Assembly: GCA_035510735.1 (NCBI GenBank) | Contig: DATKGN010000010.1 | Span: 27,814 to 91,813, forward strand | Length of the DNA stretch: 64,000 bases | Source: Patescibacteria group bacterium | GTDB lineage: Bacteria; Patescibacteriota; Microgenomatia; UBA10105; UBA927 | Direction of reading: 5' to 3' | In this document: one piece after another, positions 4,633-60,432 of the stretch | How the letters are laid out: each line of letters starts with the position of its first letter | Position numbering within the stretch: position 1 is the stretch's first letter | Made by a program: the position numbers and the translations under genes | Notes under the pieces: model-generated | Told to the model about the DNA's origin: nothing | Database searches by the model: none | The model's input: the letters and a program-made list of their open reading frames with translations, nothing else

Positions 4633-4738
4633 ACATCATTTGTCATCGCGAGTCCGTTCTTACGGCGCGGCGATCTCCAAAACCTGCATGTGTAGGACGG
4701 AAAGATTGCTTCGTCGCTCGACGACTCGCACGATCGCA

Positions 4739-5893
4739 ATGACACAGATAATAAAAATACTATTTTTCGGCTCGACGGCGGACTCGGTCATCGTCCTTTC
4801 ACGTTTAAACGGATTACGAATGACGGATTACGAATTACGTGTTGTCTGTATAGTAACCCAGCCGCCAAAACCCGTGGGACGACAACTCGTAATCACGCCG
4901 ACGCCGGTTGAAGACTGGGCGAAACAACATACCATACCGGTTGTCTCATTTGCGTCAAGTAATGAAAATCCGTCGCTCTACGAACGTGAAGAATTGGTCG
5001 CAGATACGCTCGCACCGTTTAAAGCTGACCTTCTGGTGAGCGCTTCCTACGGTCAGCGAATTCCGATGCGGACCATTAACGAAGCCCGGTTCGGCGGCCT
5101 CAATGTCCACCCGTCAATTCTCCCCCGCTGGCGGGGCGCCGACCCTGTGCCATGGGCAATTCTTGCCGGCGACCATCAAATCGGCGCAACAATAGTGACA
5201 CTCACCGAAAAATTCGATGAAGGCAAAATTATCGCGCAAAAGAAAATCTCAATTATGGATACGGATACATCCGATCCTCTTCGAACAAAACTTTTTGATC
5301 TGGGAGCCCACCTCCTCATCACGTCTCTGCCTAACTATCTTAGTCAAAATCACAAGGAATTCCCTCAACAATATAACAATAAAACAATAAAACAATCATC
5401 TTCTTATGCCCGTAAATTTGTACGGGAAGACGGCTACATTCCGTGGGAATTGATACAGGCGGTTATCCAACCGGCGACAAGGAACACGGAACAAGGGACA
5501 AGCAAATCGGCAAATGTTTCAACAATAGAACACTATAACAATATAACAATTATAAAAGACTACCTGAAGTGTAGAGGCAGTTCCGATCAGGATAAGCCTC
5601 TCGGTGTGATTCTTGAGCGTTTTTTCCGTGCGCTTTCCCCATGGCCGGGGGTTTGGACTAAAATAACAATTCAACGAGAACAACAAATTAACAAATTGAC
5701 AACACAACAAAGCGATAATACAACAAAACAACGAAATAACACGGAAGAAAAACGGTTAAAAATACTCGCTTGTCACTTACAACCTACAACCAACAACCTC
5801 ATTCTGGATTCCGTCCAACTCGAAGGCAAAAAATCGGTTTCGTGGAAGCAATTTGAGGCTGCTTATTTGTACCAATCAACCCCTCAGAAATAA
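4739..5893 (+). CDS. fmt: methionyl-tRNA formyltransferase with low-complexity in-frame insertions
   Basis: 'ILFFGS' N-terminus and 'NVHPSILPRWRGADPV' (Fmt HPSLLP..RG motif). The track ORF starts at 4640 but reads through a TGTCAT palindromic element. ATG 4739 (MTQIIKILFFGS) lies inside the element's terminal repeat. The C-terminal half carries Asn/Gln/Thr-rich inserts. Confidence 0.8.
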   Translation: MTQIIKILFFGSTADSVIVLSRLNGLRMTDYELRVVCIVTQPPKPVGRQLVITPTPVEDWAKQHTIPVVSFASSNENPSLYEREELVADTLAPFKADLLVSASYGQRIPMRTINEARFGGLNVHPSILPRWRGADPVPWAILAGDHQIGATIVTLTEKFDEGKIIAQKKISIMDTDTSDPLRTKLFDLGAHLLITSLPNYLSQNHKEFPQQYNNKTIKQSSSYARKFVREDGYIPWELIQAVIQPATRNTEQGTSKSANVSTIEHYNNITIIKDYLKCRGSSDQDKPLGVILERFFRALSPWPGVWTKITIQREQQINKLTTQQSDNTTKQRNNTEEKRLKILACHLQPTTNNLILDSVQLEGKKSVSWKQFEAAYLYQSTPQK

Positions 5894-8388: not shown

Positions 8389-8751
8389 GTGAAAACATTT
8401 CGTTTTCTTGATTTTCCCGTTTATAAGGAATCAAAACTCTTTCATCAATACTGCATTAAAATAACCACAGCATTACCTCGAACATATTGGGAATTAGGTG
8501 ATCAATTGCGACGTGCTGCACTCTCCATTTGTTTGAATATTTCAGAGGGATCAGCTAAATATTCTGACCGAGATTTTAAGCGTTTTATTGAAAACGCATT
8601 AGGGTCCGCAAATGAGTCATTCGCATGTCTTGATATCGCGATTAACCAGAAATTAATTACCCAAAAAACATTTCTAGAAGGGCAAACGCTAATAGAGAGC
8701 ATTACTAGGCAACTTGGAGGATTATCAAAAAAGCTTCGTGCGTTTTGTTAA
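8389..8751 (+). CDS. four-helix-bundle protein (23S rRNA intervening-sequence protein family)
   Basis: Family motif 'DQLRRAALSICLNISEGSAKYSDRDFKRFIENALGSANE'. Flanked by inverted 'ttgttaat' repeat blocks. Confidence 0.8.
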   Translation: MKTFRFLDFPVYKESKLFHQYCIKITTALPRTYWELGDQLRRAALSICLNISEGSAKYSDRDFKRFIENALGSANESFACLDIAINQKLITQKTFLEGQTLIESITRQLGGLSKKLRAFC

Positions 8752-9055: not shown

Positions 9056-9067
9056 ATTAAAAGAAAT

Positions 9068-9155
9068 GAGAGCATTAGTGTTTAGAATTTAGCGTGAATT
9101 AATTAACTGAGCCCAAGTCTCTAATGCACTAAACTCTAATTTACTAAGCTCCTCT
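9068..9155. repeat. 'TAGAG/CTCTA'-word imperfect palindromic element (family copy 1)
   Basis: 'agcattagtgtttagaatttagcg...ctctaatgcactaaactctaatttactaagctcc'. Confidence 0.55.
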
Positions 9156-14589: not shown

Positions 14590-14660
14590 ATGTCATTGCG
14601 AGACCGTTCATACGCCTGCCTGCGCAGGCAAGGAGAAGCAATCTCTCAAAGAGAATGCAC
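14590..14660. repeat. TGTCAT-element (partial copy)
   Basis: 'tgtcattgcgagaccgttcatacgcctgcctgcgcaggcaaggagaagcaatctc'. Shares the 'tgtcattgcgag' and 'gaagcaatc' blocks. Confidence 0.55.
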
Positions 14661-17230: not shown

Positions 17231-17302
17231 GAGAGATTAGAGCTTAGGGTTTAGAGCTTAGTAAATTTCTTACTAAACTCTAATGCGCTAAACACTATAC
17301 TC
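17231..17302. repeat. TAGAG/CTCTA palindromic element (copy 2)
   Basis: 'gagagattagagcttagggtttagagcttag...ctaaactctaatgcgctaaacactatactc'. Confidence 0.6.
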
Positions 17303-17310
17303 TATTTTAT

Positions 17311-17484
17311 ATGGCCAAGAAAGATCAACGGGAACTGCTTGCACTCATCTGCACTGTATGTAAATCCCAGAACTATATTACAAAGAGGAATAAGATCAAT
17401 ACGCCGGAAAAACTGGTGCTTCAAAAGTATTGTCCTCACTGCCGAAAACATACACAACACAAAGAGACGAGTAAGTTGGATTAA
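17311..17484 (+). CDS. rpmG: 50S ribosomal protein L33
   Basis: 57-aa ORF 'MAKKDQRELLALICTVCKSQNYITKRNKINTPEKLVLQKYCPHCRKHTQHKETSKLD', the canonical L33 CxxC...CxxC zinc ribbon. Too short to appear in the ORF track. Confidence 0.8.
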   Translation: MAKKDQRELLALICTVCKSQNYITKRNKINTPEKLVLQKYCPHCRKHTQHKETSKLD

Positions 17485-17520
17485 AAGAGCTTAGGGAATT
17501 AGGGTATTAGAGTTTAGGAA
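17485..17520. repeat. TAGAG/CTCTA palindromic element (copy 3, short)
   Basis: 'aaaagagcttagggaattagggtattagagtttaggaat'. Confidence 0.5.
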
Positions 17521-17521
17521 T

Positions 17522-17896
17522 ATGGAAAAGTCCGTATTTAACTTCGAGAGACTCACGGTATACCAACGTGCATTAGCATTCGCCTTGAACATTTATTCAC
17601 GTACACAAAAATGGCCGCGGGAACATCTTTTTGGTTTAACAGATCAACTAAGAAGAGCATCTTTATCCATTCCGTTAAATATCGCTGAGGGGTATAGTAG
17701 GTCGCGAAAAGACTTTCAGCATTTTTTGACTCTATCACGGGGATCCTGTTTTGAATGTGTTCCGATAATAAAACTAGCGGAGTCTCTCACTTTGCTTACT
17801 TCAAAAGAAGCTGATATGTTTTATAATGAATTAGAGGAAATTGCTAAGATGCTTAGTGGACTACGGAGTTCGCTATTGAAACAACCTAAACTCTAA
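17522..17896 (+). CDS. four-helix-bundle protein (23S rRNA IVS protein family)
   Basis: 'DQLRRASLSIPLNIAEGYSRSRKDFQHFLTLSRGSCFEC'. Bracketed by TAGAG-family repeats on both sides. Confidence 0.8.
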   Translation: MEKSVFNFERLTVYQRALAFALNIYSRTQKWPREHLFGLTDQLRRASLSIPLNIAEGYSRSRKDFQHFLTLSRGSCFECVPIIKLAESLTLLTSKEADMFYNELEEIAKMLSGLRSSLLKQPKL

Positions 17897-17935
17897 AACC
17901 CTAAGCTCTAATCTCTAATGCTCTAAACTCTAACT
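17897..17935. repeat. TAGAG/CTCTA palindromic element (copy 4, short)
   Basis: 'aaccctaagctctaatctctaatgctctaaactctaact'. Confidence 0.5.
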
Positions 17936-31620: not shown

Positions 31621-32244
31621 ATGGCAGACCAAACAACAGTTCAGGAAGAAAAGAAAACAGAAGTAGCTCACCCTGCGGCCCCACCGATTATTGAGGAAGC
31701 TAAACCGCGCGTCGCCCCCGCCAATGCAAAATGGTACGTTGTGCACACATATTCAGGCCATGAAAACAAAGTCTCCACAAATTTGAAGCAGCGCATTGAA
31801 ACGATGAAATTGGCTGATAAAATCTTTGATATCGTCGTACCAACCCGTAATATCGTGACAGTGAAGCACGGTAAAAAGGAAGAACAGAAGGAAAAGATCT
31901 TCCCGGGGTACATTCTCGTCAAAATGGTGCTTGATGACGAATCCTGGCTCGCTGTGCGGACTACACAAGGCGTAACGGCATTCGTAGGCGCCGGCAATAA
32001 ACCAACACCAATCTCAGAATCCGAGGTAGCCACAATCCTGAAGTTCATGCAGATGGAAGCGCCGAAATACAAAACGTCCTTCTCTATGGGTGAAGCGGTG
32101 AAAATTGTTGACGGGCCGTTTGCCGACTTTTTGGGTACGATTGACGCAATTGATGAAGAAAAAGGCAAAGTGAAGGTGTTGGTCTCAATATTCGGCCGCG
32201 AAACGCCGGTTGAGCTAGATTTCTTACAAGTATCAAAATTATAG
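31621..32244 (+). CDS. nusG: transcription termination/antitermination factor NusG
   Basis: NGN domain 'KWYVVHTYSGHENKV' and KOW 'GEAVKIVDGPFADFLGTIDAID'. Confidence 0.9.
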   Translation: MADQTTVQEEKKTEVAHPAAPPIIEEAKPRVAPANAKWYVVHTYSGHENKVSTNLKQRIETMKLADKIFDIVVPTRNIVTVKHGKKEEQKEKIFPGYILVKMVLDDESWLAVRTTQGVTAFVGAGNKPTPISESEVATILKFMQMEAPKYKTSFSMGEAVKIVDGPFADFLGTIDAIDEEKGKVKVLVSIFGRETPVELDFLQVSKL

Positions 32245-32264
32245 ACTTATCTAGCGAAATCCAG

Positions 32265-32391
32265 AGCGAAGCGTCGGATTGAGCTAGACTTCCTTCAAGT
32301 TAGTAAATTATAAATCTTCTCCAGCGAGATCCCGATGAGCGAAGCGATATCGGGATACGAACTCGACTTCCTCCAAGTTTCAAAACTTTAA
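32265..32391 (+). repeat. two re-coded tandem copies of the nusG 3' end (last 10 codons + stop), each with an adjacent hairpin
   Basis: 'gagctagacttccttcaagttagtaaattataa' (32281-32313) and 'gaactcgacttcctccaagtttcaaaactttaa' (32359-32391) both encode ELDFLQVSKL-stop, the same as the nusG C-terminus, with different codons. Hairpin 'atcccgat-gagcgaagcgat-atcgggat' lies at 32329-32356. Confidence 0.75.
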
Positions 32392-32457
32392 TCTTTTCTC
32401 GGTTGACCTCCACGAAAAGGAACACCCGTATAACGTTACTTCCGGAATCAGATGAAA

Positions 32458-33759
32458 CTATAGCGATTTATAGTAGACGTACGCGCCGAATCCTACGGCC
32501 ACAAGGACCATGATAAGGATGATCCATCCCCATCCGAAGCCGCCTTTGGCGGACGCGATGACAGTGAATGATTGCTTCACCTGACCCTGACCGTCCGCGA
32601 GCTTTGCGACAACAAGAAGATCTTTTTTACCTGCTGTTAATGGTTTTGTCGGCCTCCACGTCCATTTTCCTGCTGAGTCTGCGATAACCTCACCGTTCAC
32701 GCCATCCGGTAATATGGATATATCGATCGTGGCGCCGGGCTCGCTAATGCCGGAGATAGTCGGTGTATCGTTCGTCTCACCTTTACCATTCGTGAATGTC
32801 GACACAGACAACACGATCGTGCGCCCTGAGACAATGGGAGTCGGCTCAGCTACGGAGGGCACAACCGTCAAATTACCGCCGGTTGAGCTGTTGCCGCAGA
32901 TACAGGACGATTCCCCGGAACAGAATGCGCTACGGCATACTTTACCTCCGGTTAATTGAGTCACACAAACAAGTCCACCCGGACAATCCAAATTATCGAC
33001 ACACGTTTGCCCGCAGGCGCTCAATATATAGAACGTCGGCGTGGGCGTCATGGTCGGCGTATCCGTCGGCGTATTGTAGTTGTAATAATATGTGGTCGGC
33101 GTATTGTAGTAATACGTTACCGGTGTATCAGTCGGCGCACAGGAACAACTGGTGTCGCTAAGACAATTCGAATTTCTACAACTTCCTGACGATCCAACGA
33201 TTCCGCTTGAAGAATAACAGACATAGCCGTTCTGGCAATTCGTCGGCGGATTAGTTGAGGGATTGCAGGTCGAATTACATCCGACCGTTACCGGAGTCGG
33301 TGTACTCGTCGGCGTATCAGTGTTGGGTGGATTGGTAGTCGTCGGATTTGTTGTCGGGTTTGTCGTTGTTGCCGGCGCCACGCACGGACCGGAATACGTA
33401 TTTCCTGCACAAGCGCTCATGTCTGTCGTCCAGTGCGCTCCAAATCCCGGACAGCAATATTGCGCGCCACCGCAAAGCCCCACACGACCTGCTCCGTTAC
33501 ACAGTTGTATATCCCCATCCGGCTCTGCGGGACAGTTCGTGAAATTCGTAATCTGCCACATGCTGCCGTTTTGACACTGATTGCAGCTGGCGGGATTACA
33601 CTTTGAGGCTAAATCACGAATTTCAGTCGTATGGGATGAAGCAGCGACAAGTACAATAAGTCCGATTAATAATGAAAACAGAAGGAGAACAGGTCCCCAA
33701 TTAAACCAAATGCCGGTTCGGCGGATACTTCTATTATGTCGTCTTTTTGCCATAATCAC
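32458..33759 (-). CDS. Pro/Thr- and Cys-rich surface protein with N-terminal signal/TM and C-terminal TM anchor
   Basis: 'TTNPTTNPTTTNPPNTDTPTSTPTP' linkers, 'NTPTTYYYNYNTPT' repeats, C-terminal 'GWGWIILIMVLVAVGFGAYVYY'. Confidence 0.5.
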   Translation of the reverse strand: MIMAKRRHNRSIRRTGIWFNWGPVLLLFSLLIGLIVLVAASSHTTEIRDLASKCNPASCNQCQNGSMWQITNFTNCPAEPDGDIQLCNGAGRVGLCGGAQYCCPGFGAHWTTDMSACAGNTYSGPCVAPATTTNPTTNPTTTNPPNTDTPTSTPTPVTVGCNSTCNPSTNPPTNCQNGYVCYSSSGIVGSSGSCRNSNCLSDTSCSCAPTDTPVTYYYNTPTTYYYNYNTPTDTPTMTPTPTFYILSACGQTCVDNLDCPGGLVCVTQLTGGKVCRSAFCSGESSCICGNSSTGGNLTVVPSVAEPTPIVSGRTIVLSVSTFTNGKGETNDTPTISGISEPGATIDISILPDGVNGEVIADSAGKWTWRPTKPLTAGKKDLLVVAKLADGQGQVKQSFTVIASAKGGFGWGWIILIMVLVAVGFGAYVYYKSL

Positions 33760-33970
33760 CTTCTATGATCACGCATATTTCATCCTTTTGCAAGGGCGTA
33801 TTTGCCTCACTCTTGCCAATAGCGGCATTGTTATGATATAGTTCAACTTACTTCGTCCGTCGGAAGACTCATGAAGGAGAAACCGGGATTTTGTTTGGGT
33901 TTCGATCGTAAAGTAAGACTGACTTCAAAAGCATCTTCTTTCTTTCGCACCACTCCCCGATTTTTAGTCA

Positions 33971-34052
33971 AGAGCTTAGAGCATTAGAGTGTAGAGCTTA
34001 GTATTTCTAAACTCTAAACCTAAACTCTAATGCCCTAATTTACTAAACCCTA
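33971..34052. repeat. TAGAG/CTCTA palindromic element (copy 5)
   Basis: 'agagcttagagcattagagtgtagagcttag...ctaaactctaaacctaaactctaatgccctaatttactaaaccctaact'. Confidence 0.6.
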
Positions 34053-34485: not shown

Positions 34486-34487
34486 TA

Positions 34488-34560
34488 GAGCTTAGAGCAT
34501 TAGGGCATTAGAGATTAGAAAAACTAAACTCTAAGTTCTAAATACTAAACTCTAATTTAT
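34488..34560. repeat. TAGAG/CTCTA palindromic element (copy 6)
   Basis: 'gagcttagagcattagggcattagagattagaaaaactaaactctaagttctaaatactaaactctaatttatt'. Confidence 0.6.
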
Positions 34561-34561
34561 T

Positions 34562-35419
34562 ATGGGCAAAATCAGAGTCGCCAAATTAGGCGACGAATCA
34601 CAGGAAAAAGAACAAAAACGACGTGCAGACGCACGGCGCCAAACGAAGGATTCCAAAAAATCCAAAGTAGAGGGCGTCCATCTCCATGGCGGTGAACGGG
34701 TCGCAGTCGTTGAGGGAACCGAAATCAGACCGGAGTTTAAAAAGCTTATTGAAGAAGTTGAAGGCACCGATACCGCTAAAGACGGGAAAAAAGCGAAAAA
34801 AGAACATAAAGCGCGGGTTCGCTCAAAGCGGTATGTTGAAAAAGCCTCGCTCATTGAAAAAAATAAATTGTATCCCCTTGGCGACGCCGTATCACTCGTC
34901 AAACAAACAAGCCTTACGAAGTTCGACGGCACGGTAGAGATGCATATCAATTTAAATTCGCAAATGTTAGGAGAAAAGAAAGATTTCCGCGGATCAGTCT
35001 CGCTTCCTCATGGCACGGGCCGCGAGGTCCGGGTCGTCATCGCCGATGATGCAGTAATAGCCGCCGTCACGGATGGAAAAATTGATTTTGATATTCTGGT
35101 TGCCCACCCCAGCATGATGCCAAAGCTCGCTAAAATAGCTAGAGTGTTAGGGCCCAAAGGGCTTATGCCCAATCCCAAAAACGGCACGGTATCTCCTGAT
35201 CCTGAAAAACGCGCAAAAGAGCTCTCTCACGGGCAGGTGAACTTTAAAACTGAACCGGATCAGCCGCTTATTCACTTATCCGTCGGCAAAGTATCGTTTG
35301 ATGACACGAAGCTCGTCGAAAACATTGAAGCGGTTGTCCGCGCCGTCGGCGCCAATAAAATCTCGCGTGCCACCCTCACCGCCACCATGGGCCCGGGTGT
35401 TAAAATCGCACTTTCGTAA
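34562..35419 (+). CDS. rplA: 50S ribosomal protein L1 with ~85-aa Lys/Glu-rich N-terminal extension
   Basis: Core 'LYPLGDAVSLVKQTSLTKFDGTVEMHINLN...GSVSLPHGTG' is L1. It is preceded by 'MGKIRVAKLGDESQEKEQKRRADARRQTKDSKKSK...KKAKKEHKARVRSKR'. Confidence 0.85.
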   Translation: MGKIRVAKLGDESQEKEQKRRADARRQTKDSKKSKVEGVHLHGGERVAVVEGTEIRPEFKKLIEEVEGTDTAKDGKKAKKEHKARVRSKRYVEKASLIEKNKLYPLGDAVSLVKQTSLTKFDGTVEMHINLNSQMLGEKKDFRGSVSLPHGTGREVRVVIADDAVIAAVTDGKIDFDILVAHPSMMPKLAKIARVLGPKGLMPNPKNGTVSPDPEKRAKELSHGQVNFKTEPDQPLIHLSVGKVSFDDTKLVENIEAVVRAVGANKISRATLTATMGPGVKIALS

Positions 35420-35468: not shown

Positions 35469-35888
35469 ATGGGCAATCCGCGGACAAACGGACAATTAAA
35501 GCGTGAGGAAACCGAAAACGCACTTATGACCATCATTGAGTGGCTAGCTGACCAAAACGAAGAGAAGTTCAGACCACGGACGCTTGAGGGTATATATTTC
35601 AAAGATCTAAAAGGAAGATCTCATCTCATATCATGGGCTAGATTTTCTGTAGAAAATCTAGAACTTCTACACAAGAGGCTTACGAGTGAATTGCGTGACG
35701 AACAGACGACCGGAGAAGATCGATTTACGTTTGGCACTATACGCAACTCACATGAAGATGTCCTCGGTTTAGCCTTTGCTCGTCCAAGCATCGCCCGGGA
35801 ATACGGTGCAAACAGCAAACTTCTCGATCATATGATCGCCGCAGAGGGAAATGTCACTCTCAAAGCCAGCTGTTCTAAGGAAACATAA
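35469..35888 (+). CDS. hypothetical protein (inserted between rplA and rplJ)
   Basis: 139-aa ORF, no recognisable domain. Confidence 0.4.
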   Translation: MGNPRTNGQLKREETENALMTIIEWLADQNEEKFRPRTLEGIYFKDLKGRSHLISWARFSVENLELLHKRLTSELRDEQTTGEDRFTFGTIRNSHEDVLGLAFARPSIAREYGANSKLLDHMIAAEGNVTLKASCSKET

Positions 35889-35955
35889 CAAATTGACCTT
35901 CCCCAATCTCTCCGCACTTGTCCCCCATCTTATAATTGACTATAGTGAATATAGT

Positions 35956-36519
35956 ATGATTGATACGCGCATCGTGCAGTCCCTCAAAGACTCAGCAAGC
36001 GTATTTGTGACTGAGTGCGTCAATAACCCCCAAAAGTGCGGACTCTCGCGGAGTGAAAAGAATTGGATGGAGGAATTAAGTAAAGTCTACCTCTGTGCCG
36101 AGCTTCACGTCGACCTCCCTGCCCATCCAACCCGCGAATTCCTGGAAAAAATCAGGAAAATGACGGAATTCGGCCACGACAGCGCCGTTACGACGCGTAT
36201 GATTCTCTACAGCGCCAATATCGCCTGCGAGAAGGATTTTGCTACCAACACTCCCGCCTATTTAGCCACGCTCGAGCACCACCAGGAGCACTGGAGCCAG
36301 AAACATGTTGAATCCCAGCATGCATATATACAAAAACGGTCGATAGAGGATTTCATGCAGGCGTATTTTGATACACCGGAATCAATATCAGAGCCCGAAC
36401 TCACGTTCTACCTCACTCTCTACTTTAAGCATTTTTATCGACTCCTCTACCAGTTTATGCTATTCTATACGCAGTCGCAGTCACCTGTTTACTATGGCAG
36501 AGGAAACCCAAAATCCTGA
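35956..36519 (+). CDS. hypothetical protein
   Basis: Track ORF 35851-36519. An internal ATG at 35956 (MIDTRIVQSL) avoids overlap with the upstream gene. Confidence 0.35.
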   Translation: MIDTRIVQSLKDSASVFVTECVNNPQKCGLSRSEKNWMEELSKVYLCAELHVDLPAHPTREFLEKIRKMTEFGHDSAVTTRMILYSANIACEKDFATNTPAYLATLEHHQEHWSQKHVESQHAYIQKRSIEDFMQAYFDTPESISEPELTFYLTLYFKHFYRLLYQFMLFYTQSQSPVYYGRGNPKS

Positions 36520-36655
36520 CAACGACGAAGCAAGGTTTGATAAATCCCGCAATATGACGGCCGTGCTTGAGCGCGCTCTGGAGGGAGCTGGGAAAATCGG
36601 CGCCAAACTCATAGACGCCGCAGGCGAAATCTTCAGCATGATTTTTAAACGGTAG
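36494..36655 (+). CDS. small hypothetical protein
   Basis: 'MAEETQNPDNDEARFDKSRNMTAVLERALEGAGKIGAKLIDAAGEIFSMIFKR'. Weak. Confidence 0.25.
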   Translation: MAEETQNPDNDEARFDKSRNMTAVLERALEGAGKIGAKLIDAAGEIFSMIFKR

Positions 36656-36718
36656 AGTCCCCTTTCTTGCATTTTCCAACCCTCCTTGTTATAAAGCCAC
36701 TAACTACCCGAACGTGAT

Positions 36719-37561
36719 ATGACCATCCAAGAACAAGCTGAATTAAAACGCGGAGCCCCCTCGCATGAAACTCCAACATTTGATAAGGAATCGGTCATTG
36801 GCGCTACTCGTGTCTTAATTGGCCAACTCGACGGTTTGAGGCAGTTTGCAGATCGCGAGAACCTTGACACCTCAATGGAAATCCTCACAAATCTCTTAGT
36901 GCGCGTGCCTCCCACGGAGGAAATCAGGGAATCGCTCACTGATTTTGTTACCAATGTGCCGGATAAATCAAATGAGAAGGAAAAAAGACATTATGTCCGG
37001 ATGCTCAGATTCCTGGCTCCATTTGTCGACTCCGCAAGCGTACTTAACGGTTTAAATCATGCAAAAAGATATCCGGGATTCAACAAGTTCAAAGATGCAC
37101 TCCCGATCCTCATACAGCTAGATGATAAGTCAGAGGCAATCTCAGCGATGCAAACATTAGCAAAAAATACGAACAGGTGGTCCCGAGAATTTGTATCAGT
37201 AGCAACCGTTTTTGAAGGGTTAGCCTATATTCACAACGAAGATGCGGTCACTATGCTCCAAGAAGGACTCACGATAACAAACCAAAAAATGGAAACAATT
37301 GAACGCAAATCGGCCTACACTGCAAAAGACGGTGATGATATGCACGCGTATTCCTATATCCGTGAGTCCATAATATCCGCGCTTGCCCATAATAACGACC
37401 CTCATGCGCTGGCCGTATTAACACAAGAACTTGAAATTGTGACTAATCAGATAGTCGATTATAAGGAAGCAAATAAAAGAGTTTTCGAAGTAAATCATAC
37501 AACGAATCTGCTAGAGATAGTCAGAGCACTGATGGCGAAGGCTGATGGGCGCGCCGCTTGA
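36719..37561 (+). CDS. hypothetical alpha-helical repeat protein
   Basis: 280 aa, helical-repeat-like composition. Overlaps the next ORF by 17 nt in another frame. Confidence 0.45.
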   Translation: MTIQEQAELKRGAPSHETPTFDKESVIGATRVLIGQLDGLRQFADRENLDTSMEILTNLLVRVPPTEEIRESLTDFVTNVPDKSNEKEKRHYVRMLRFLAPFVDSASVLNGLNHAKRYPGFNKFKDALPILIQLDDKSEAISAMQTLAKNTNRWSREFVSVATVFEGLAYIHNEDAVTMLQEGLTITNQKMETIERKSAYTAKDGDDMHAYSYIRESIISALAHNNDPHALAVLTQELEIVTNQIVDYKEANKRVFEVNHTTNLLEIVRALMAKADGRAA

Positions 37562-38303
37562 TCAAAAAACGTTTGACGCGTGTATGCGGGCGTTCTCGTT
37601 GGGTAACACAGAAATAACGAATATCGTCGGGTATTCGTTGCTCCCATCCGGCCCGCTCGATCATGACGAAGCAACATTTGAACTTCGCCCATGGGACTAC
37701 CAAGAATGTGATCTGTTTATGGCGGAGTTGGCAATACTCCATAATCAGGGTTCAGAGAGCGACAAGCGTCTTGTCAAAAATAAAACGCTCTACACAAACA
37801 TGGTTGAGTTTGTCCCTTATAACCACCGCGCACACGATTTAGACGTTATAGCCCGATACATCGGGATAAATAATAAATCATTCTTACCTGAAGCGGTATT
37901 CAATACTCCAATGCCTACCCTCCAAAACATCGATAACCTTATGATGAATAAAGCTATTGTAAAACTTCCTAAAATAATCGAACCCATTTGGTATCAAAGG
38001 TTTGGTCCAATAAGCATGATAACACTGCATAACCCTCATGCATCCGTTGAGGATCGTATTGGCGCGGCGATGGCAATAAAAGATAAATATGTGCGAAAAC
38101 CCGTGGAAAGCATTGAGAGGTCACTTAGATTCGCAGAATTAGTGGGTGAGCTTTTTAAGAACAATCCTGATCTTGTAAAAACTGCTGTGGCAGCAGTCTG
38201 TGTGAGCATTGTGCCCGGACGGACCGCAGAACTGCTTAACAACTTCTCCGGTGATACGGCCATTAAGCGCGGTATTTTGTGGGCACTTGAACAATCGAAG
38301 TAA
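37545..38303 (+). CDS. hypothetical alpha-helical protein
   Basis: 252 aa. Possibly the continuation of the previous ORF after a frameshift. Confidence 0.4.
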   Translation: MGAPLDQKTFDACMRAFSLGNTEITNIVGYSLLPSGPLDHDEATFELRPWDYQECDLFMAELAILHNQGSESDKRLVKNKTLYTNMVEFVPYNHRAHDLDVIARYIGINNKSFLPEAVFNTPMPTLQNIDNLMMNKAIVKLPKIIEPIWYQRFGPISMITLHNPHASVEDRIGAAMAIKDKYVRKPVESIERSLRFAELVGELFKNNPDLVKTAVAAVCVSIVPGRTAELLNNFSGDTAIKRGILWALEQSK

Positions 38304-38380
38304 AACGAATATAATACACTAATCCTAAAGACCGTGCGCCATTCGATAAAGGATATAAGCCGCACCGAGGGAAATTAGTA

Positions 38381-38448
38381 AGAACTTAGGGCGTAGAGCA
38401 TTAGAGCTTAGAAAAACTAAACTCTAAGCACTAAACCCTAAACTCTAA
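38381..38448. repeat. TAGAG/CTCTA palindromic element (copy 7)
   Basis: 'gaacttagggcgtagagcattagagcttagaaaaactaaactctaagcactaaaccctaaactctaaca'. Confidence 0.6.
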
Positions 38449-39134: not shown

Positions 39135-39524
39135 ATGGCAAAATTATCCAAAGATGAAATACTAGCGGCAGTAGGTGAAATGACCGTACTCGAACTGGCA
39201 GATCTCGTGAAAGCACTCGAGGAAAAATTTGGTGTCACCGCAGCTCCTGTCGCCGTTGCCGGTGCCGCACCAGCAGCCGCAGCAGATAGCGGAGAACCCA
39301 AAGAGGAACAAACAGTATTTAACGTCGTTCTGGCTGCCGCAGGCGCCAACAAAATCGGCGCTATTAAAGCGGTCCGTGAACTCGTTCCGACGCTCGGTCT
39401 TCAGGAAGCAAAGACACTCGTTGAGAGCGCTCCCAAAGAAGTCCTGACAGGCGTTAACAAAGCAGCAGCTGAGGAAGCCAAGAAAAAGCTGGAAGCCGCA
39501 GGGGCCAAGGTGGAACTAAAGTAA
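39135..39524 (+). CDS. rplL: 50S ribosomal protein L7/L12
   Basis: '[34 protein letters not shown]...[12 protein letters not shown]'. Confidence 0.9.
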
Positions 39525-39925
39525 TAACTGAAGCAAAAGGAAGTCCGTGGTCAGTTTTCGAGTTTTCGAGAAATTACTGCCACGGATCCCGCATGAGCGC
39601 TCTTTCGAGTCGAGGATGTAAACCTCGCGAGAAAGTAAGCTTCGTGCGGGACGAAAAAGAAATTAGAGGCCGCGGGCGCGAAGGTCGAGCTCAAATAAAA
39701 AATACGATAAAACCCAATTCATATTGGGTCGAGATCCCGACGAATAATATGAGTCGGGATAAGAGCTCAAATAAGAATAAAATAGAAATCCGGCGAAGCC
39801 GGATTCGAGATTCTGATGAGATTTACGAATCAGAATGTGAGCTCAAATAATTATAAAATAAAGTCCAGCTTAGCTGGACCGACATCCCGATAAGTTATAC
39901 GAATCGGGATAAGAGCTCAAGTAAT
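39525..39925 (+). repeat. array of hairpins each followed by a re-coded copy of the rplL 3' end plus stop codon
   Basis: 39669-39698 'gccgcgggcgcgaaggtcgagctcaaataa' encodes AAGAKVELK-stop, the same as the rplL C-terminus, with different codons. Then 'gagctcaaataa' at 39763 and 39839 and 'gagctcaagtaa' at 39913 (ELK-stop). Each is preceded by a hairpin such as 'atcccgac..gtcgggat', 'attctgat..atcagaat' or 'atcccgat..atcgggat'. Confidence 0.75.
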
Positions 39926-39933
39926 GACTTTCT

Positions 39934-40013
39934 TGTCATCGTGAGTCGAGTCTTCGAGACGTGGCGATCTCAAACAAGATTGCTTCGCCGTCCGAACGGT
40001 CTCGCAATGACAT
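39934..40013. repeat. TGTCAT-element (complete; TIR 'tgtcatcgtgag...ctcgcaatgaca')
   Basis: Internal 'tcgagtcttcgagacgtggcgatc...gattgcttcg' is nearly identical to the copy at 61945-62037. Confidence 0.7.
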
Positions 40014-40025
40014 TACTATAAAATC

Positions 40026-40070
40026 TAAAAATCCCCCGCAACCCTTACAGGGTAAAGGGGGATTTTTTTG
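40026..40070 (+). terminator. strong rho-independent terminator
   Basis: 'aaaaatccccc-gcaacccttacagggtaaa-gggggatttttttg'. Confidence 0.6.
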
Positions 40071-40155
40071 ATAACACGTGTAATCTACTTGACAATTAGA
40101 CCCTTTTGATCGACACTACGCACCAATAACTCCTGCCCGCCAAAAAGGAGAATAT

Positions 40156-40707
40156 ATGAAGGAATATATATTAGGTCATGTCGAGAAAGGTCCCGCTCCG
40201 GTTCAGGCGGCGGACCGGTTATTAGCCAAGCTTCTTGCAAATCATATTGTGTTACGATCATCCTACATAGCGGATAAGGATTATCCGAACCTTCGTAAGG
40301 GGGCTCCAATAGAAAACCGCGAGATACGGTTGGGTTTAGTCGATGCGCCAAAAGGTGCACCGCATGTCGTATTTGTCGGAAAGGAATCCGACCTAAAGGG
40401 GATGAAGGCAGCGTTCTTACAGGGAGAAACAACCGAGACATGGTCCCTTAAAATCCAATCCACCAACAAAGTCTCCGAGGGTGAACGAACGATTACCATC
40501 GTCAACGGCTTTGTGTGTAGCGATATAATGAAAGTCGAAGACAGGTTGGAGCCGTTAGTTATCAGCACCCGCGCGATGGGGACCGGCAATCTTATAGAGG
40601 GACATCCCTCAACACCCGCTGATGGGATTATTGTTTTTGTCGGCACACGACTGAGTGATACAGGTACAGAGATAGCCAGCATAAACGCTGTACATGTAGG
40701 AGATTAA
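40156..40707 (+). CDS. hypothetical protein
   Basis: 183-aa ORF with SD-like 'aaaaggag' upstream. No recognisable domain. Confidence 0.45.
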   Translation: MKEYILGHVEKGPAPVQAADRLLAKLLANHIVLRSSYIADKDYPNLRKGAPIENREIRLGLVDAPKGAPHVVFVGKESDLKGMKAAFLQGETTETWSLKIQSTNKVSEGERTITIVNGFVCSDIMKVEDRLEPLVISTRAMGTGNLIEGHPSTPADGIIVFVGTRLSDTGTEIASINAVHVGD

Positions 40708-41094: not shown

Positions 41095-41182
41095 TGTCAT
41101 TGCGAGTCCGTTCGGACGGCGAAGCAATCTCGTTCACCAAGAAAGAGATCGCCACTCCGCCAGTCGGCGGATCGCGATGACA
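41095..41182. repeat. TGTCAT-element (TIR 'gtgtcattgcgag...atcgcgatgaca')
   Basis: Contains 'ggcgaagcaatctcg'. Confidence 0.65.
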
Positions 41183-41262: not shown

Positions 41263-41339
41263 TTGTCATCCTCGGGTCAAGCCCGAGGATCTGCTTTAAA
41301 TTGAAGCCAAACCGATTCCCGCCTTCGCGGGAATGACAT
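41263..41339. repeat. TGTCAT-element variant ('ttgtcatcctcgggtcaagcccgaggat...ttcccgccttcgcgggaatgacat')
   Basis: Shares the 'cctcgggtcaagcccgaggat' arm with the in-gene copy at 50152-50179. Confidence 0.6.
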
Positions 41340-41390
41340 AAGGATATAATCAATAACAATCTATATCGTACTATCTGCATTCATTTGATA

Positions 41391-41872: not shown

Positions 41873-42226
41873 TCACTTAGAAAGACTTGAACGGAGTGCC
41901 GTAAGCATCTTCGATATCTCAAATATTTTCTGTTTTAACTCTTGAAAATCACGTTCTGCTATAAGGCGTTGATCCTTTGCAATAGTGATAATTGGTACGC
42001 ACTCATAGCAAGATCCCCTGGCAATTGAAAGAAAATGCTGAAAGTCTTTTCCTGTTCTACTGGACCCCTCGGCAATATTTAGAGATATAGATAAAGCGGC
42101 GCGATTTAGCTGATCCCCTAAACTAAATCGCAGTTGTGAGGGCCATTTGCCCGTTAAAGTGAATATTTTGTTTGATAGAACAACAGCCTCCTGATAAACC
42201 AACAGATTTTCAAATCGAAATTCCAT
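41873..42226 (-). CDS. four-helix-bundle protein (23S rRNA IVS protein family)
   Basis: 'MEFRFENLLVYQEAVVL...GDQLNRAALSISLNIAEGSSRTGKDFQHFLSIARGSCYEC'. Flanked by 'gttacttagttacttgg' / 'ccaagtaac' inverted octamer repeats (41825-41880 and 42232-42262). Confidence 0.75.
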   Translation of the reverse strand: MEFRFENLLVYQEAVVLSNKIFTLTGKWPSQLRFSLGDQLNRAALSISLNIAEGSSRTGKDFQHFLSIARGSCYECVPIITIAKDQRLIAERDFQELKQKIFEISKMLTALRSSLSK

Positions 42227-42267
42227 AGTGTTACTAAGTAACCAAGTAACTTGCGTTGCTCGCGTTG

Positions 42268-43086
42268 CTATATTGACACTTTCGCTTCCCCAAACTCCCC
42301 TATTTTTTTCATCGATCGTGCATGACCCCACACAAAATCAAACATCTGCTTCTGCATGGAGGCAAAGTCGGGATTCACAATCTCCACGCAGAATATATCG
42401 TCGTGTAAATAGTGATATTGGGCCGTCACATCGTTATAAATAACAATCTCGGAGGTAATGGCAAGTTCTTTGGGGTCCATATACCGCGGCGTCCAGAATG
42501 TAACCGCAGCTGCTTTGATTTTCGTCCACGCCTCCATATGGGCGATGTTGGTGAGCTGGAGCGTATGAATTTTATGTTCAACCAGTTCCGCTCTCACTTT
42601 TTCACTGAATTCCTGGGGAAGGAAGGCGGTCATGCTTGTGGCCACTTCATAAATCCGAAGCTCTCCCCGGGCCCTGATCGAATTCCATGTGACGTGCTTT
42701 AACCCGTCAATCCCATGATGGTAATAAACCTTTGATCCCGTCATCCCCCGCCTGTGGAGGGCCGCAAGCTCCTCAAATACAGCAGGCATGGAGGCTTTGA
42801 GGCTGTCCAGATCGCTTTGCCTCTGGGCAAGGATGAGTTCCATCTGCTCATACGGGCTGGCCGTGAACTTGAGACCAAGCGTATCGAACTTCTGGGTGAC
42901 AAGTCCGTGAGCCTCCAGCTTGTCCAAAAGCCGATACACGCGTGTTCTGGCCATATGGATCTGACGGCTGATCTCAAGCGCTGAAAGCGTGCCTTTTTCC
43001 AGTAAATACAGGTAAATCTCCACTTCGGGAGTGGCAAGGCCCAAGCGGGTCAACGTGCGGGTGAGTATGTCTGTTTGATCGGACAT
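42268..43086 (-). CDS. TrmB-family transcriptional regulator (sugar-responsive type)
   Basis: N-terminal 'LGLATPEVEIYLYLLEKGTLSALEISRQIHMARTRVYRLLDKLEAHGLV' TrmB HTH, plus a C-terminal effector domain. Confidence 0.7.
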   Translation of the reverse strand: MSDQTDILTRTLTRLGLATPEVEIYLYLLEKGTLSALEISRQIHMARTRVYRLLDKLEAHGLVTQKFDTLGLKFTASPYEQMELILAQRQSDLDSLKASMPAVFEELAALHRRGMTGSKVYYHHGIDGLKHVTWNSIRARGELRIYEVATSMTAFLPQEFSEKVRAELVEHKIHTLQLTNIAHMEAWTKIKAAAVTFWTPRYMDPKELAITSEIVIYNDVTAQYHYLHDDIFCVEIVNPDFASMQKQMFDFVWGHARSMKKIGEFGEAKVSI

Positions 43087-46470: not shown

Positions 46471-46848
46471 TCAAATGACAGACTTTCGTCTGGTTTTTTC
46501 TAAAATGGCACTTACAATTCGTAGGATTTCTGTACATTCACTAATATACGAATCACTTGTTGTATTTGTCAAAAGCTTTGAATCACGAACAAACGACAAC
46601 CAGTAGATTGTCTCCTTCGTTTCTTTCTTGACGATCATATATTTCGCAATAAAGTCTTTTTTTGACGAAGAAGCATCAGCCTCCTGATCGTTAGCACCCA
46701 TAGAAGTAAGTGAAGACGCTAACTGGGAAATAATAGGAGTTGCCTCAATAGATTTAGGAATTTTTTTTACTATATCTCGAAAACAATTGAGAATAAACAG
46801 ATATATTCTCCTGTGAATATCTTTATCAGTGTTGCGATATTTATTCAT
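46471..46848 (-). CDS. divergent four-helix-bundle (IVS-like) protein
   Basis: 'ISQLASSLTSMGANDQEADASSSKKDFIAKYMIVKKETKETIYWLSF' follows the family pattern (QL..A.S...N..EG...KDF......E....WL). Confidence 0.45.
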   Translation of the reverse strand: MNKYRNTDKDIHRRIYLFILNCFRDIVKKIPKSIEATPIISQLASSLTSMGANDQEADASSSKKDFIAKYMIVKKETKETIYWLSFVRDSKLLTNTTSDSYISECTEILRIVSAILEKTRRKSVI

Positions 46849-48972: not shown

Positions 48973-50463
48973 TTATTTATTGATTCTATACACCCCGACG
49001 AACTCATCATCCAGCGGTTTTTTATATTTTGCCACTAGCGTCATGTACTTTTCCAAACCCCCGTATTGATTTCCCCGTGACACAAAATACCACGGACGAT
49101 TGTTAAATACTCCAAAGCCTGCGACTTCTTTCATTTGTTCAAGGTAAAAGACCGGAATATGTTCGCGCGTCATATAGCTTAGGACCGCATCCTCAGGATT
49201 GCCGCTGTCAAGGCGCACAAAGACCACAATCGGCTGTTTTGCCGATTGGCGAGTCAGATACCCGACAGCCTCACTGACCCCCCAGCCTGACGTCCAGCCG
49301 GTCACATATTGGCTGAAATCCAACCGCGCCGCGGGAAGCGGTTTCAGAATAGAATAGAACTGTAACGGGAAAAAACTCAAAAGAACGCCCTCAAATGCAA
49401 CGGAAACGATAACAGCATACACAATAACACGCTTCTTACAATACGATAACCATAAAGCCGCCAATAATAATAAAGGAACCGAGCTCACGGCGAGATAACG
49501 GGCGGTTAAACTCGTTAACAGCATATATTCGATGAATATCGGGCCGAAAATCCACAGAGCCAATACCTGTACTTCCCGTTTTTTCCAGAATTGCCAGAGT
49601 GCGATACAAAAGACAATAACGGCAACGGGCCCTACAAATGCAAGAAGCCAACTCACAATCGCCTGTGCATTATTGAACCATTGATCGGGTGGCGTTGCTA
49701 AAATTTGCATGAGTGTTCTTGTTCGCACAATAGCCGTCATAGTTTTTGAATAATCGATATTCGGATTAAAGAGCACCGGCACCATGAGGGCAAATGCCGT
49801 CAATACTCCGCAAATAACCCAACTGACTACCACCTGCCACGTGGCGGCCCACTGTTTCCAGTTGATAAGCAGGGTGAAAAATACCAAAGGAACCGCAAGG
49901 AGCATGGTCGATTTATACCACCAGCCTGTGGCAACAACCGCGCCAAGGAGTATTCCTTTTGCGAGGGTAGGCTTCTGGGAAAACAGCAAGGAAAGATACA
50001 GAGCAAGCGTGAAGCACGCGGTAACCGGGCTTTCGGCAAGAGCCAACGTGTCAAAAAGGATGAGAAATGGACAGAGTGCGATGAGGAGTAATGTATAGTT
50101 TATGTCATTCTCGCGCAGGCGAGAATCGGTATTCATTTTCAAAGAATATATGGATCCTCGGGTCAAGCCCGAGGATGACAATATGGAAAAAACGCCCCAG
50201 AAGGTTACACAGGACCAGAGGATGCTGACAAGCCGCATGGAAATCAAGGGATCGAAGGGCAAACGTTGTATTATACCAAATGAAATGGCGACGAGCGGCT
50301 GTTTGCCGTCAAGGGTCCACGCCCACCAACGGCTGGGATCCTGTAAAAACCCAAGTCCCCAGTGCATATAAATGGCTTCATCATTAAAAATCGGTAAGCG
50401 GAAAGCCAATAGGAGCCGGAGGGTCAGGAATAATCCAAATATCACCCAAATACGACGGTTCAT
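48973..50463 (-). CDS. GT39/ArnT-like (PMT_2 family) membrane glycosyltransferase carrying an in-frame palindromic-element insertion
   Basis: Polytopic membrane protein. Nt 50100-50180 is a TGTCAT-element read in frame as 'GLTRGSIYSLKMNTDSRLRENDINY'. Confidence 0.6.
   Translation of the reverse strand: MNRRIWVIFGLFLTLRLLLAFRLPIFNDEAIYMHWGLGFLQDPSRWWAWTLDGKQPLVAISFGIIQRLPFDPLISMRLVSILWSCVTFWGVFSILSSSGLTRGSIYSLKMNTDSRLRENDINYTLLLIALCPFLILFDTLALAESPVTACFTLALYLSLLFSQKPTLAKGILLGAVVATGWWYKSTMLLAVPLVFFTLLINWKQWAATWQVVVSWVICGVLTAFALMVPVLFNPNIDYSKTMTAIVRTRTLMQILATPPDQWFNNAQAIVSWLLAFVGPVAVIVFCIALWQFWKKREVQVLALWIFGPIFIEYMLLTSLTARYLAVSSVPLLLLAALWLSYCKKRVIVYAVIVSVAFEGVLLSFFPLQFYSILKPLPAARLDFSQYVTGWTSGWGVSEAVGYLTRQSAKQPIVVFVRLDSGNPEDAVLSYMTREHIPVFYLEQMKEVAGFGVFNNRPWYFVSRGNQYGGLEKYMTLVAKYKKPLDDEFVGVYRINK
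50100..50180. repeat. TGTCAT-element inserted in frame within a coding sequence
   Basis: 'tgtcattctcgcgcaggcgagaat...atcctcgggtcaagcccgaggatgacaa'. Confidence 0.65.
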
Positions 50464-59964: not shown

Positions 59965-60330
59965 TTATCCGGTCGCGTGCACTCGAATCAGACCATTGAT
60001 GACTTGACCTCCTCGAATTATCAATGAATATAATGCATCAAACTCTTTTTCCTTTATCAAGCCCAGATCTTTTGCGAGTATGAGAAAATTTGCCACCTCA
60101 CTGTTCGACCCGCGTGCTTGATAGTAAAAGCGTAGCTTATCTGGATAATGGTATCGACCAAATCCTTCGGCAATATTCGCAGTTACAGAACTTGCTGCTC
60201 GCCTTAACTGATCAATGATACCAAACTTTTCCTCTTTCGGAAAGCCAACCGTCAATTTATAGATAGCGAGTACAATTTGATGGTTAATTTTCCACGCTTC
60301 CAAATCAGTAAATGAAGCAATTTTGCTCAT
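59965..60330 (-). CDS. four-helix-bundle protein (23S rRNA IVS protein family)
   Basis: 'IDQLRRAASSVTANIAEGFGRYHYPDKLRFYYQARGSNSEVANFL'. Start likely 'MSKIASFTDLEAWK' at 60330. Confidence 0.75.
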   Translation of the reverse strand: MSKIASFTDLEAWKINHQIVLAIYKLTVGFPKEEKFGIIDQLRRAASSVTANIAEGFGRYHYPDKLRFYYQARGSNSEVANFLILAKDLGLIKEKEFDALYSLIIRGGQVINGLIRVHATG

Positions 60331-60351
60331 ATTTATACTCGTCACTCGGAA

Positions 60352-60432
60352 CTCGTCATCCATCATCCGTATTGCGCTTCCCAGCTGTCAAATGTTGGAT
60401 GTCGGATGTCGAGTGTCGAATGTCGCCGCTAC
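60352..60432. repeat. degenerate heptanucleotide tandem repeats
   Basis: 'ttggatgtc ggatgtc gagtgtc gaatgtc gcc'. Confidence 0.6.

Follow-up and report, generated by a model that had tools for sequence, protein, structure and literature searches.

How can complete copies of the end of an essential gene, each spelled in its own codons, come to stand in a row behind that gene? The question is raised by a 64,000-nucleotide (nt) stretch of a Patescibacteria group bacterium (contig DATKGN010000010.1, positions 27,814 to 91,813; hereafter the window, meaning the whole stretch that was analysed), in which the intact nusG gene is followed by two additional versions of its last ten codons and stop codon, with hairpin-bearing spacers in between. 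The relatives of this NusG belong to Candidatus Gottesmanbacteria. An earlier note on the same DNA had proposed that one mechanism, shared with the rplL gene, targets sequence next to the stop codon and regenerates it there. We examined the window plus short flanks and compared it with relatives available as loci or contigs, in all cases as assembled sequence only. Based on these data, we consider it probable (roughly 60%) that the stack arose by serial replacement of the gene end through small, protein-less hairpin cassettes.

Stacked gene ends behind nusG

The nusG array consists of the following parts, all on the plus strand:

31621-32244, plus strand: nusG, 207 amino acids, intact (open reading frame (ORF); protein 100% identical to an NCBI-named NusG from a Patescibacteria metagenome-assembled genome; Pfam NusG/KOW)
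32212-32244, plus strand: present functional end, ELDFLQVSKL-TAG, GAGCTAGATTTCTTACAAGTATCAAAATTATAG; probably the coding part of the youngest cassette
32245-32280, plus strand: spacer S1, 36 nt; hairpin in shortened form, with AATCC at 32258-32262 and GGATT at 32276-32280; GCGAAGC as apex motif
32281-32313, plus strand: copy c1, read as a displaced end, ELDFLQVSKL-TAA, GAGCTAGACTTCCTTCAAGTTAGTAAATTATAA; the orthologous copy in relative L192 is 1 synonymous nt away
32314-32358, plus strand: spacer S2, 45 nt, with CGAG, a perfect hairpin at 32329-32356, then AC
32359-32391, plus strand: copy c2, read as a displaced end, ELDFLQVSKL-TAA, GAACTCGACTTCCTCCAAGTTTCAAAACTTTAA; most distal and presumably the oldest

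The gene closes with the codons GAG CTA GAT TTC TTA CAA GTA TCA AAA TTA TAG, and the two recoded, in-register copies that had been noticed behind it were confirmed. The gene end differs from c1 at 8 nt and from c2 at 9, and the two copies differ from each other at 8; every one of these differences is synonymous, among them a serine switch from TCA to AGT. When the same number of sites was substituted at random, peptide and stop codon were kept 0 times in 100,000 trials per pair, so that in-place decay is impossible as a source of exclusively synonymous differences. They are synonymous because each copy would have been under selection for as long as it formed the real end of a nusG allele. On sequence grounds, the copies are best read as former functional ends of nusG alleles and not as the product of recoding in place. 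Displaced ends also resemble real nusG ends of other species; c2, for example, lies only 2 nt from the real end in relative L007. The array is identical across five independent assemblies of the same species (L001-L005), which excludes an assembly artefact, and a scan of the whole window for a repeated C-terminal peptide plus stop returned nusG and rplL alone.

Two features go beyond the earlier note. Spacer S1, which holds a shortened hairpin, is homologous to S2 (0 of 2000 shuffles reach the alignment score), and its TCTAGC is complementary to the GCTAGA that opens the next copy. Besides, the three nusG ends of the window share one reading frame without internal stops, and this frame is not conserved: the 35-nt spacers of L038 and L039 shift the copy into another frame, and the 36-nt spacer of L113 keeps it in frame. 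The direct-repeat family formed by the nusG array (D17) has spacings of 69 and 78 nt, and about 10 nt after each stop in the window units resemble the native nusG 3' flank of L011. As a whole, the 231-nt region folds no better than shuffled sequence (z = -0.42), and only the local hairpins matter.

A hairpin family confined to gene-end copies

The earlier note had pointed to a perfect 8-bp hairpin between the two copies, with the same stem as in the rplL array, and this also holds: it reads ATCCCGAT-GAGCGAAGCGAT-ATCGGGAT at 32329-32356, with N12 between the arms. The pattern ATCCCGAY-N6-16-RTCGGGAT occurs three times in the window (32329, 39734, 39884) against 0 expected, and a relaxed structural search adds only a compensated variant at 39810 (ATTCTGAT/ATCAGAAT). 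Together with the shortened form in S1, the window holds five such hairpins, all of them in the nusG and rplL arrays. The suggestion of one process at both genes is supported. Within the window, the hairpin is found only next to gene-specific end copies, which always begin 1-2 nt behind it. Including relatives, the 3' foot lies 1-2 nt before the first base of the copy in 13 of 13 instances, the four bases 5' of the stem are invariably CGAR, and arrays with n ends have n-1 hairpins; the distance from stop codon to hairpin varies, from 6 to about 35 nt. Across about 700 kb of related loci the hairpin is confined to nusG ends, and no end copy was found at any other gene.

The structure itself is conserved. 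The 8-bp stem is followed by an internal loop and a 2-bp apex helix capped by a triloop, the apex helix being GC/CG in the nusG type and AT/TA in the rplL type. Across the 13 instances 97.8% of the stem positions are paired, with two-sided changes at three stem pairs and both apex pairs, a degree of covariation that 0 of 500 shuffles reach. A generic insertion of the hairpin into GAGCTC was ruled out: the window contains 15 GAGCTC and 11 GTYGARCTN sites, and hairpins stand at the arrays only. Rfam 15 gave no match in 32150-32470 at E<=10 and chance-level matches only in 39480-40080, which leaves no known RNA family as a candidate.

A metagenome scan for CGAR plus hairpin produced 105 matches, nearly all unrelated; those that belong to the family are L113, L137 (the same as L039) and L190 (the same as the window's rplL). 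Viral contigs scanned for the hairpin yielded chance-like matches only. Among the metagenome matches, many cases on rumen and gut contigs (L088, L090, L100, L130, L133, L134 and others) carry the same stem in an unrelated context, GGCCGGGTAAAA-CGAA-ATCCCGAT-AACGCTTCGCT-ATCGGGAT, followed by repeats of GTGCA[AG]CTGGAAACC.

The rplL array

The second array is longer and its parts are, again on the plus strand:

39135-39524, plus strand: rplL; its last ~55 nt are an imported tract
39525-39653, plus strand: spacer after rplL, 129 nt, with nested hairpins including a hairpin-like, long-loop ATCCCGCATGAGCG...CGTGCGGGAC
39654-39698, plus strand: former rplL end, read as displaced; another spelling than the present end in 12 of 15 codons
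39699-39924, plus strand: three tandem units, each a small GC hairpin, CGAG/CGAC, the hairpin, NN and GAGCTCAARTAA (ELK-stop); repeat family D11
39734-39760, 39810-39836 and 39884-39910, plus strand: hairpins of the array, from the structural search
39763-39774, 39839-39850 and 39913-39924, plus strand: ELK-stop remnants, 12 nt each

Compared with the sister lineage L206, the window's rplL has 9 mismatches over its first 330 nt as against 13 within the final 60, so that the present end is a diverged tract. The outgroups L207 and L212 agree with L206 upstream. The last 24 nt of the window's displaced end are 1 nt from the real L206 end, GGCGCGAA[A/G]GTCGAGCTCAAATAA. L206 itself carries one such hairpin unit at rplL, with a remnant that has suffered a 1-nt deletion. 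The simplest state is found in L212, where the real end GAGCTCAAATAA is followed by 13 nt, a hairpin, a T and the remnant GACTTAAAGTAA. This remnant, which carries a change from E to D, occupies the place of the real end GAATTAAAGTAA in the hairpin-less L207, and the same terminator follows in both.

The spacers of the rplL units measure 129 and about 64 nt. With both genes in view, the target is not the stop-proximal sequence that the earlier note had assumed; it is a fixed Val|Glu-Leu boundary, which lies 33 nt before the stop in nusG and 12 or 45 nt before the stop in rplL. As a separate observation, the small GC hairpins with A-runs in the rplL units (39786-39806, 39862-39880) score as intrinsic terminators on the minus strand and not on the rplL strand.

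Relatives and the order of events

Among 80 species-level relatives, nusG copies with hairpins occur only in L038 and L039; L113 was added through the metagenome scan, and the sister lineage L192/L193 is also stacked. The peptide ELDFLQ[VI]xK[LIV] is conserved throughout the clade. The earlier note had named absence or variability of the copies in close relatives as a point that would count against its view, and in part this is what we found: copies are absent in about 75 related species, and their number varies among the close relatives that carry them.

The order of events emerges from a comparison of L113, L040 and L038. L113 and L040 are close, with 12 mismatches over the 217 nt that precede the end, and their real ends differ at 7 of 33 nt. 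The displaced copy of L113, on the other hand, is 3 nt from the real end of L040, which has no hairpin. The present end of L113 equals that of L038 (0 of 33 differences), though L038 is distant: upstream, 47% of third positions differ between the two, including all three codons before GAG. At this divergence, the chance of 0 of 11 third-position differences is about 9e-4 (arithmetic on the counts). L113 resembles L040 up to GTC and L038 past a shared 11-nt GAGCTCGATTT, and its left crossover lies inside this 11-nt core despite a 23-nt identical block 10 nt upstream. Compared with an L040-like ancestor, the net change is +69 nt, comprising a new end plus a hairpin spacer, with the 11-nt direct repeats GAGCTCGATTT and GAACTCGATTT at the flanks. 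Therefore, L113 gained 69 nt and its old end moved behind the hairpin. Rather than an end regenerated in place, as originally proposed, the comparisons show a new end and a hairpin brought in before the resident end, with the copies being displaced older ends.

In the sister lineage L192/L193, NusG is 98% identical to that of the window. Over the 624 nt of the gene there are 92 differences (affecting 38% of third positions), yet only 1 in the final 60 nt; at 14.7% divergence, the chance of at most one mismatch in 60 nt is about 7e-4 (arithmetic on the counts). The present ends are identical, and L192/L193 has one extra unit in yet another synonymous spelling. S1 and c1 show 3 of 36 and 1 of 33 mismatches, respectively, while the distal copy differs at 9 of 33 nt, two of them non-synonymous (E to K, D to N), and the hairpin of this distal copy is degenerate. 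Unit number changes fast between sister lineages. Displaced ends also decay: in L038 the stop is lost (KLW*) in a copy whose first 27 of 27 nt equal the real end, and the distal copy of L192 reads KLNF. The closer stack-free relatives L213 and L214 were tried for dating c1 and c2 and have third positions that are already saturated. Since all other relatives are synonymously saturated in this way, the age order of the two window copies rests on the analogy with L113 and rplL together with the sister-lineage gradient.

Two further relatives deserve description in their own right. In L039, a 2.6-kb block (2670-5322) with ORFs of 74, 139, 105 and 423 amino acids separates the nusG stack from a third nusG fragment, which is longer. 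This fragment reads K-I-L-V-S-I-F-G, a 21-nt insert, then ETPVELDFLQIRKL*, and its last 30 nt equal the real end; it is followed by half a hairpin and then by the promoter of a gene pair that stands directly behind the stack in L113. In L040 (4583-4612), an exact 11-nt nusG-end repeat, AGGAAATTATA, occurs without a hairpin 18 nt past the stop, where ~0.2 such cases would be expected by chance among 80 loci. Apart from this 11-mer, there is no excess of hairpin-less micro-remnants after nusG among the 80 relatives.

A cassette model and its weak points

At the level of assembled sequence, these comparisons show in which order the events took place, that the new ends are of foreign origin, that the right-hand junction is fixed, that ends decay once displaced and that the structure of the hairpin is conserved. 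The serial replacement which we favour would proceed as follows. A nusG cassette of ~68-78 nt, comprising the recoded last ten codons plus stop, a short 3' flank, CGAR and the structured hairpin, would arrive from another lineage of the clade. It would recombine in at the Val197|Glu198 boundary, within a short core common to cassette and target (GARCTNGAY). The gene would stay intact because reading continues into the end supplied by the cassette, and the resident end would move to 1-2 nt behind the hairpin, turn non-coding and slowly decay. Repeated insertion would stack old ends with the youngest adjoining the gene, and units may also be lost or duplicated via recombination between spacers. 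The same hairpin family would have acted at rplL, which also offers a Val-Glu-Leu junction (PVELD in nusG, KVELK in rplL). A site-specific process that reads the hairpin is favoured by the recurrent right junction, by a CGAR that never varies, by the conservation of the hairpin and its occurrence at two unlinked genes, and by the core crossover in L113. We infer that a trans-acting recombinase working on folded DNA recognises the hairpin, which would formally resemble an integron attC site beside its core.

Several of our results weigh against this model. Stacks are rare, with 5 of ~90 lineages examined. The spacers of L113 and L038 differ at ~8 of 36 nt although their ends are identical. The start of the imported tract at rplL precedes the duplicated segment by 10 nt or more, and the 2.6-kb insertion in L039 displaced a longer fragment (~24 codons) at a junction without a hairpin; there is thus no single precise left boundary for all events, which fits homologous recombination as well. 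In the outer helix of the hairpin (CGAG/CTCG) pairing reaches only 67%, and S1-type units have TCTAGC/GCTAGA in a different register instead. A double-stranded circle of 69 nt is physically implausible, so that an intermediate has to be postulated that is single-stranded, linear or part of a larger molecule. Pfam scans of ~50 window ORFs revealed no integrase, transposase, HUH enzyme or TnpB in the 64 kb, and none was found in 6.7 kb beyond its right edge. Finally, the assembled contigs contain no free or circular form and no within-species empty site, L001-L005 being identical.

Alternative explanations

The most serious competitor, which we regard as possible though clearly less probable, is passive homeologous recombination after DNA uptake, a case of homology-facilitated illegitimate recombination in which a homologous crossover in nusG or rplL is combined with a microhomology join in the resident end, and the hairpin is a passenger from the donor's 3' untranslated region without any signal function. 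The variable left boundary at rplL and L039 speaks for it, as do the lack of a recombinase in the window scans, the L011-like flank after the unit stops and the fact that the nusG-rplK gap is a hotspot of foreign genes in the clade. It does not predict, however, that the right junction (hairpin, 1-2 nt, then GAR CTN) is common to at least four independent nusG units, that the same hairpin family stands at two unlinked genes, or that compensatory changes keep the hairpin structure. The crossover of L113 in the 11-nt core, with a longer identical block close by, and the absence of an excess of hairpin-less remnants are likewise at odds with it. The serial-replacement model also has to be compared with the view that the units are remnants of prophages or integrative elements, which entered through a tyrosine integrase at the 3' ends of nusG and rplL, accreted in tandem and were then deleted down to attachment-site stubs. 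Integration at the 3' ends of rplL, rpsI and rpmG with a replacement end and tandem accretion is well documented (PMC5357655), e14 is flanked by icd and an icdC fragment (according to a passage of PMC13626634), and L039 does hold 2.6 kb of cargo between two nusG ends with 30 identical final nucleotides. Yet a compact spacer of 35-45 nt with homologous sequence recurs in at least eight units from five lineages, which independent deletions would not yield; no integrase lies in or near any unit, and no recombinase is found among the L039 cargo ORFs listed or the listed neighbours of L038 and L039. Because of the shared spacer, we consider this reading unlikely.

Synthetic home-and-rescue drives place a recoded essential-gene end before the old target sequence. 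Formally, the architecture of the array is the same, and it could itself be functional, either as a set of silent spare ends for respelling or as a source of guide-like RNAs that attack old-end alleles while the recoded end provides rescue (cleave-and-rescue or homing drive). The hairpin abuts the old end as the scaffold of a CRISPR (clustered regularly interspaced short palindromic repeats) RNA or omega-RNA abuts its guide, the unit sizes of 36 plus 33 nt are CRISPR-like and the proximal units are anomalously conserved between sister lineages. Since displaced ends decay, with rplL remnants of only 12 nt, spacer lengths differ (35-45 nt; 129 nt at rplL), Rfam gives no match and the Pfam scans of the window found no nuclease gene, we assign this possibility a very low probability. 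Hardly credible at all is tandem duplication of gene end and hairpin in place with later divergence, or its variant in which in-frame copies serve as a readthrough or bypass device. The regular D17 spacings, the common stop-free frame in the window and the 27 matching nucleotides of the L038 copy would suit it; the random-substitution test, the foreign present ends in the L113/L040/L038 trio and at rplL, the out-of-frame copies of L038 and L039 and the different frames through the hairpin in different lineages do not. As the sole explanation, duplication in place is refuted by the rplL tract, the L113 trio and the substitution test.

Some narrower candidates were rejected as well. Programmed bypass or readthrough fails because the copies keep the frame of the gene in the window and L113 but lose it in L038 and L039. 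A small ORF that would cross the hairpin and continue into the copy has a different frame relative to the hairpin in the window than in L038, L039 and L113, and the peptide likeness reflects nucleotide conservation of the hairpin. The spacer does not resemble a decayed copy of the coding sequence before ELDF, as global and local alignments against the 45-60 nt upstream were non-significant (p = 0.05-0.84; four or five lineages); S1 shares with the upstream coding sequence only a 12-nt resemblance, GCGAAACGCCGG / GCGAAGCGTCGG (p = 0.12). Mutagenesis by a diversity-generating retroelement does not fit the 53 mismatched sites, where A stands at 14 in the copy and at 20 in the gene end; no reverse transcriptase was found among the window ORFs scanned, and the PF05635 genes described below are not adjacent. 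A CRISPR array is excluded by repeats of 36 and 45 nt (35-36 elsewhere; 129 and ~64 at rplL), by spacers that are all the same 33 nt of nusG in register and by the lack of a cas domain among the window ORFs scanned.

Genes and repeats around the arrays

The feature next to the nusG stack is:

32458-33759, opposite strand to nusG: Ig-like surface-protein gene, 433 amino acids

The earlier note had taken this gene for an insertion that followed the stack. Homologues occupy the same place in 19 or more relatives, few of which have a stack, and in at least 18 stack-free relatives they also lie on the same strand, so the surface-protein gene is an old neighbour of nusG and no part of the stacking event. 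Neither is direct succession of nusG and rplK the norm from which the window departs: the gap is 34-200 nt in Daviesbacteria and Woesebacteria and 1-3.6 kb in most Gottesmanbacteria. Within the Gottesmanbacteria examined (L007-L086), the interval is a hotspot of variable gene content ranging from 91 nt to 3.6 kb. Another break of the canonical operon is formed by four successive ORFs without Pfam match (139, 222, 280 and 252 amino acids) between rplA and rplJ at 35469-38303.

The window is also rich in repeats. It contains five paralogous PF05635 genes (23S rRNA intervening-sequence protein / Avd-like four-helix bundle) at 8389-8751(+), 17522-17896(+), 41873-42331(-), 46471-46848(-) and 59965-60366(-), each bracketed by inverted arrays of ~8-nt tandem repeats; they look like a family of mobile or intervening-sequence-like elements. 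Arrays of the short repeat TAGAGC/CTAAACTCTAA at 33970-34052, 34486-34567 and 38376-38448, and also at 9061-9151 and 17273-17932, flank some PF05635 genes and occur, without such a gene, before rplK, between rplK and rplA and before rplJ. Palindromic TGTCAT...ATGACA elements are located at 39935-40012, 41095-41134, 4641-4677 and 14591-14627, and a 95%-complementary TGTCAT pair brackets ~1.08 kb with a 183-amino-acid ORF of unknown function (40156-40707). A second hairpin family, TGTCATTCCCGCGAAGGCGGGAATC, is present at 41311-41341 and 50100-50130. The loops of the TGTCAT elements and of this second family share a GCGAAGC-like motif with the nusG hairpin; as this motif is all that connects them, we do not uphold the proposed link between the stack and the TGTCAT elements.

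Significance

If serial replacement is true, the last few codons of some of the most conserved genes are exchanged horizontally on their own, between lineages saturated with synonymous differences, and the genome keeps a readable stratigraphy of these exchanges behind the gene. What the events have in common would then be a structured hairpin of 28 nt and no protein-coding element, pointing to an uncharacterised recombination activity in bacteria of the Candidate Phyla Radiation. There are practical consequences, too. Stacks may mislead gene callers and distort marker phylogenies, for which nusG and rplL are standard genes, and gene flow among uncultivated lineages could be followed with them as natural markers.

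A broader proposal, which we offer as speculative and rather improbable, is that these units represent an undescribed class of mobile DNA in the Candidate Phyla Radiation: protein-free gene-end cassettes of ~70 nt that home to a fixed codon boundary near the C-terminus of essential genes (nusG, rplL) and carry a synonymous rescue copy of the displaced codons together with an attC-like hairpin for a trans-acting recombinase or nuclease. In its strongest form, hairpin and old end would act against uninserted alleles, as a natural analogue of home-and-rescue gene drives. A recoded rescue end followed by the old target is the layout of engineered rescue-type drives, and a natural precedent would be of interest to that field.

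Comparison with known systems

No description of such cassettes was found in the searchable literature, and each known system covers only some of their properties. Palindromes of the REP/REPIN (RAYT) type and those derived from IS200/IS605 are short hairpins that stand outside genes, just behind them, and have a conserved tetranucleotide on the 5' side of the stem; they are dispersed in tens to hundreds of places and come without gene-end copies. The conserved 5' CGAR and hairpin seen here are reminiscent of them, but there are only five hairpins in 64 kb, all beside end copies, and no Y1 transposase in the window. Homology-facilitated illegitimate recombination in naturally transformable bacteria inserts foreign DNA beside a conserved gene by means of a one-sided homologous anchor and a microhomology join. 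With a join inside the gene end, such an event would leave part of the gene behind as a displaced fragment; a recurrent junction at a conserved hairpin, and the same hairpin at two genes, are not predicted. The term itself occurs in a passage of PMC6382021.

With integrons, the arrays share the layout only: a fixed proximal insertion point, an imperfect-palindrome site plus short core in each unit, no recombinase within the units and the newest unit presumably nearest the insertion point. In contrast to integrons, the window has no IntI, the core is GARCTNGAY and not GTTRRRY, the site spans ~43 nt against at least 57 nt in attC, and the outer helix is poorly supported. Furthermore, an essential gene would contain the counterpart of attI, and all cassettes code for the same ten residues.

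Integrative elements come nearer. Flanking direct repeats of the gene end beside an intact gene are present at the 69-nt insert of L113, whereas a recombinase of its own is not, as the 69- and 78-nt units contain no ORF and the ~50 window ORFs include no integrase or transposase. In E. coli, e14 (and phage 21) supplies icd with its own gene end, with mostly synonymous differences, and the original end is left as the icdC fragment on the far side (a passage of PMC13626634, citing Hill et al. 1989). An element in the 3' part of a conserved gene that brings its own end and leaves the old one as a fragment is what we propose here; but e14 is a 15-kb prophage with an integrase and one displaced fragment, whereas the units behind nusG are 68-78 nt, non-coding, hairpin-ended and two to three deep. 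Streptococcal integrative and conjugative elements, integrative and mobilizable elements and decayed, cis-mobilizable elements accrete in tandem at the 3' ends of rplL, rpsI, rpmG and fda, where arrivals enter attL or attR and the resulting arrays are separated by repeated gene-end cores (PMC5357655). They likewise use the ends of ribosomal-protein genes, including rplL, as sites; unlike our units, they measure kilobases, encode tyrosine or serine integrases and have short, near-identical cores, and neither hairpin-only mini-units nor serial recoded full ends are described there. The closest precedents are therefore e14 with icd and icdC and the tandem accretion at rplL and rpsI ends, from which our units differ in their size, in the hairpin as their only constant part and in the series of complete recoded ends.

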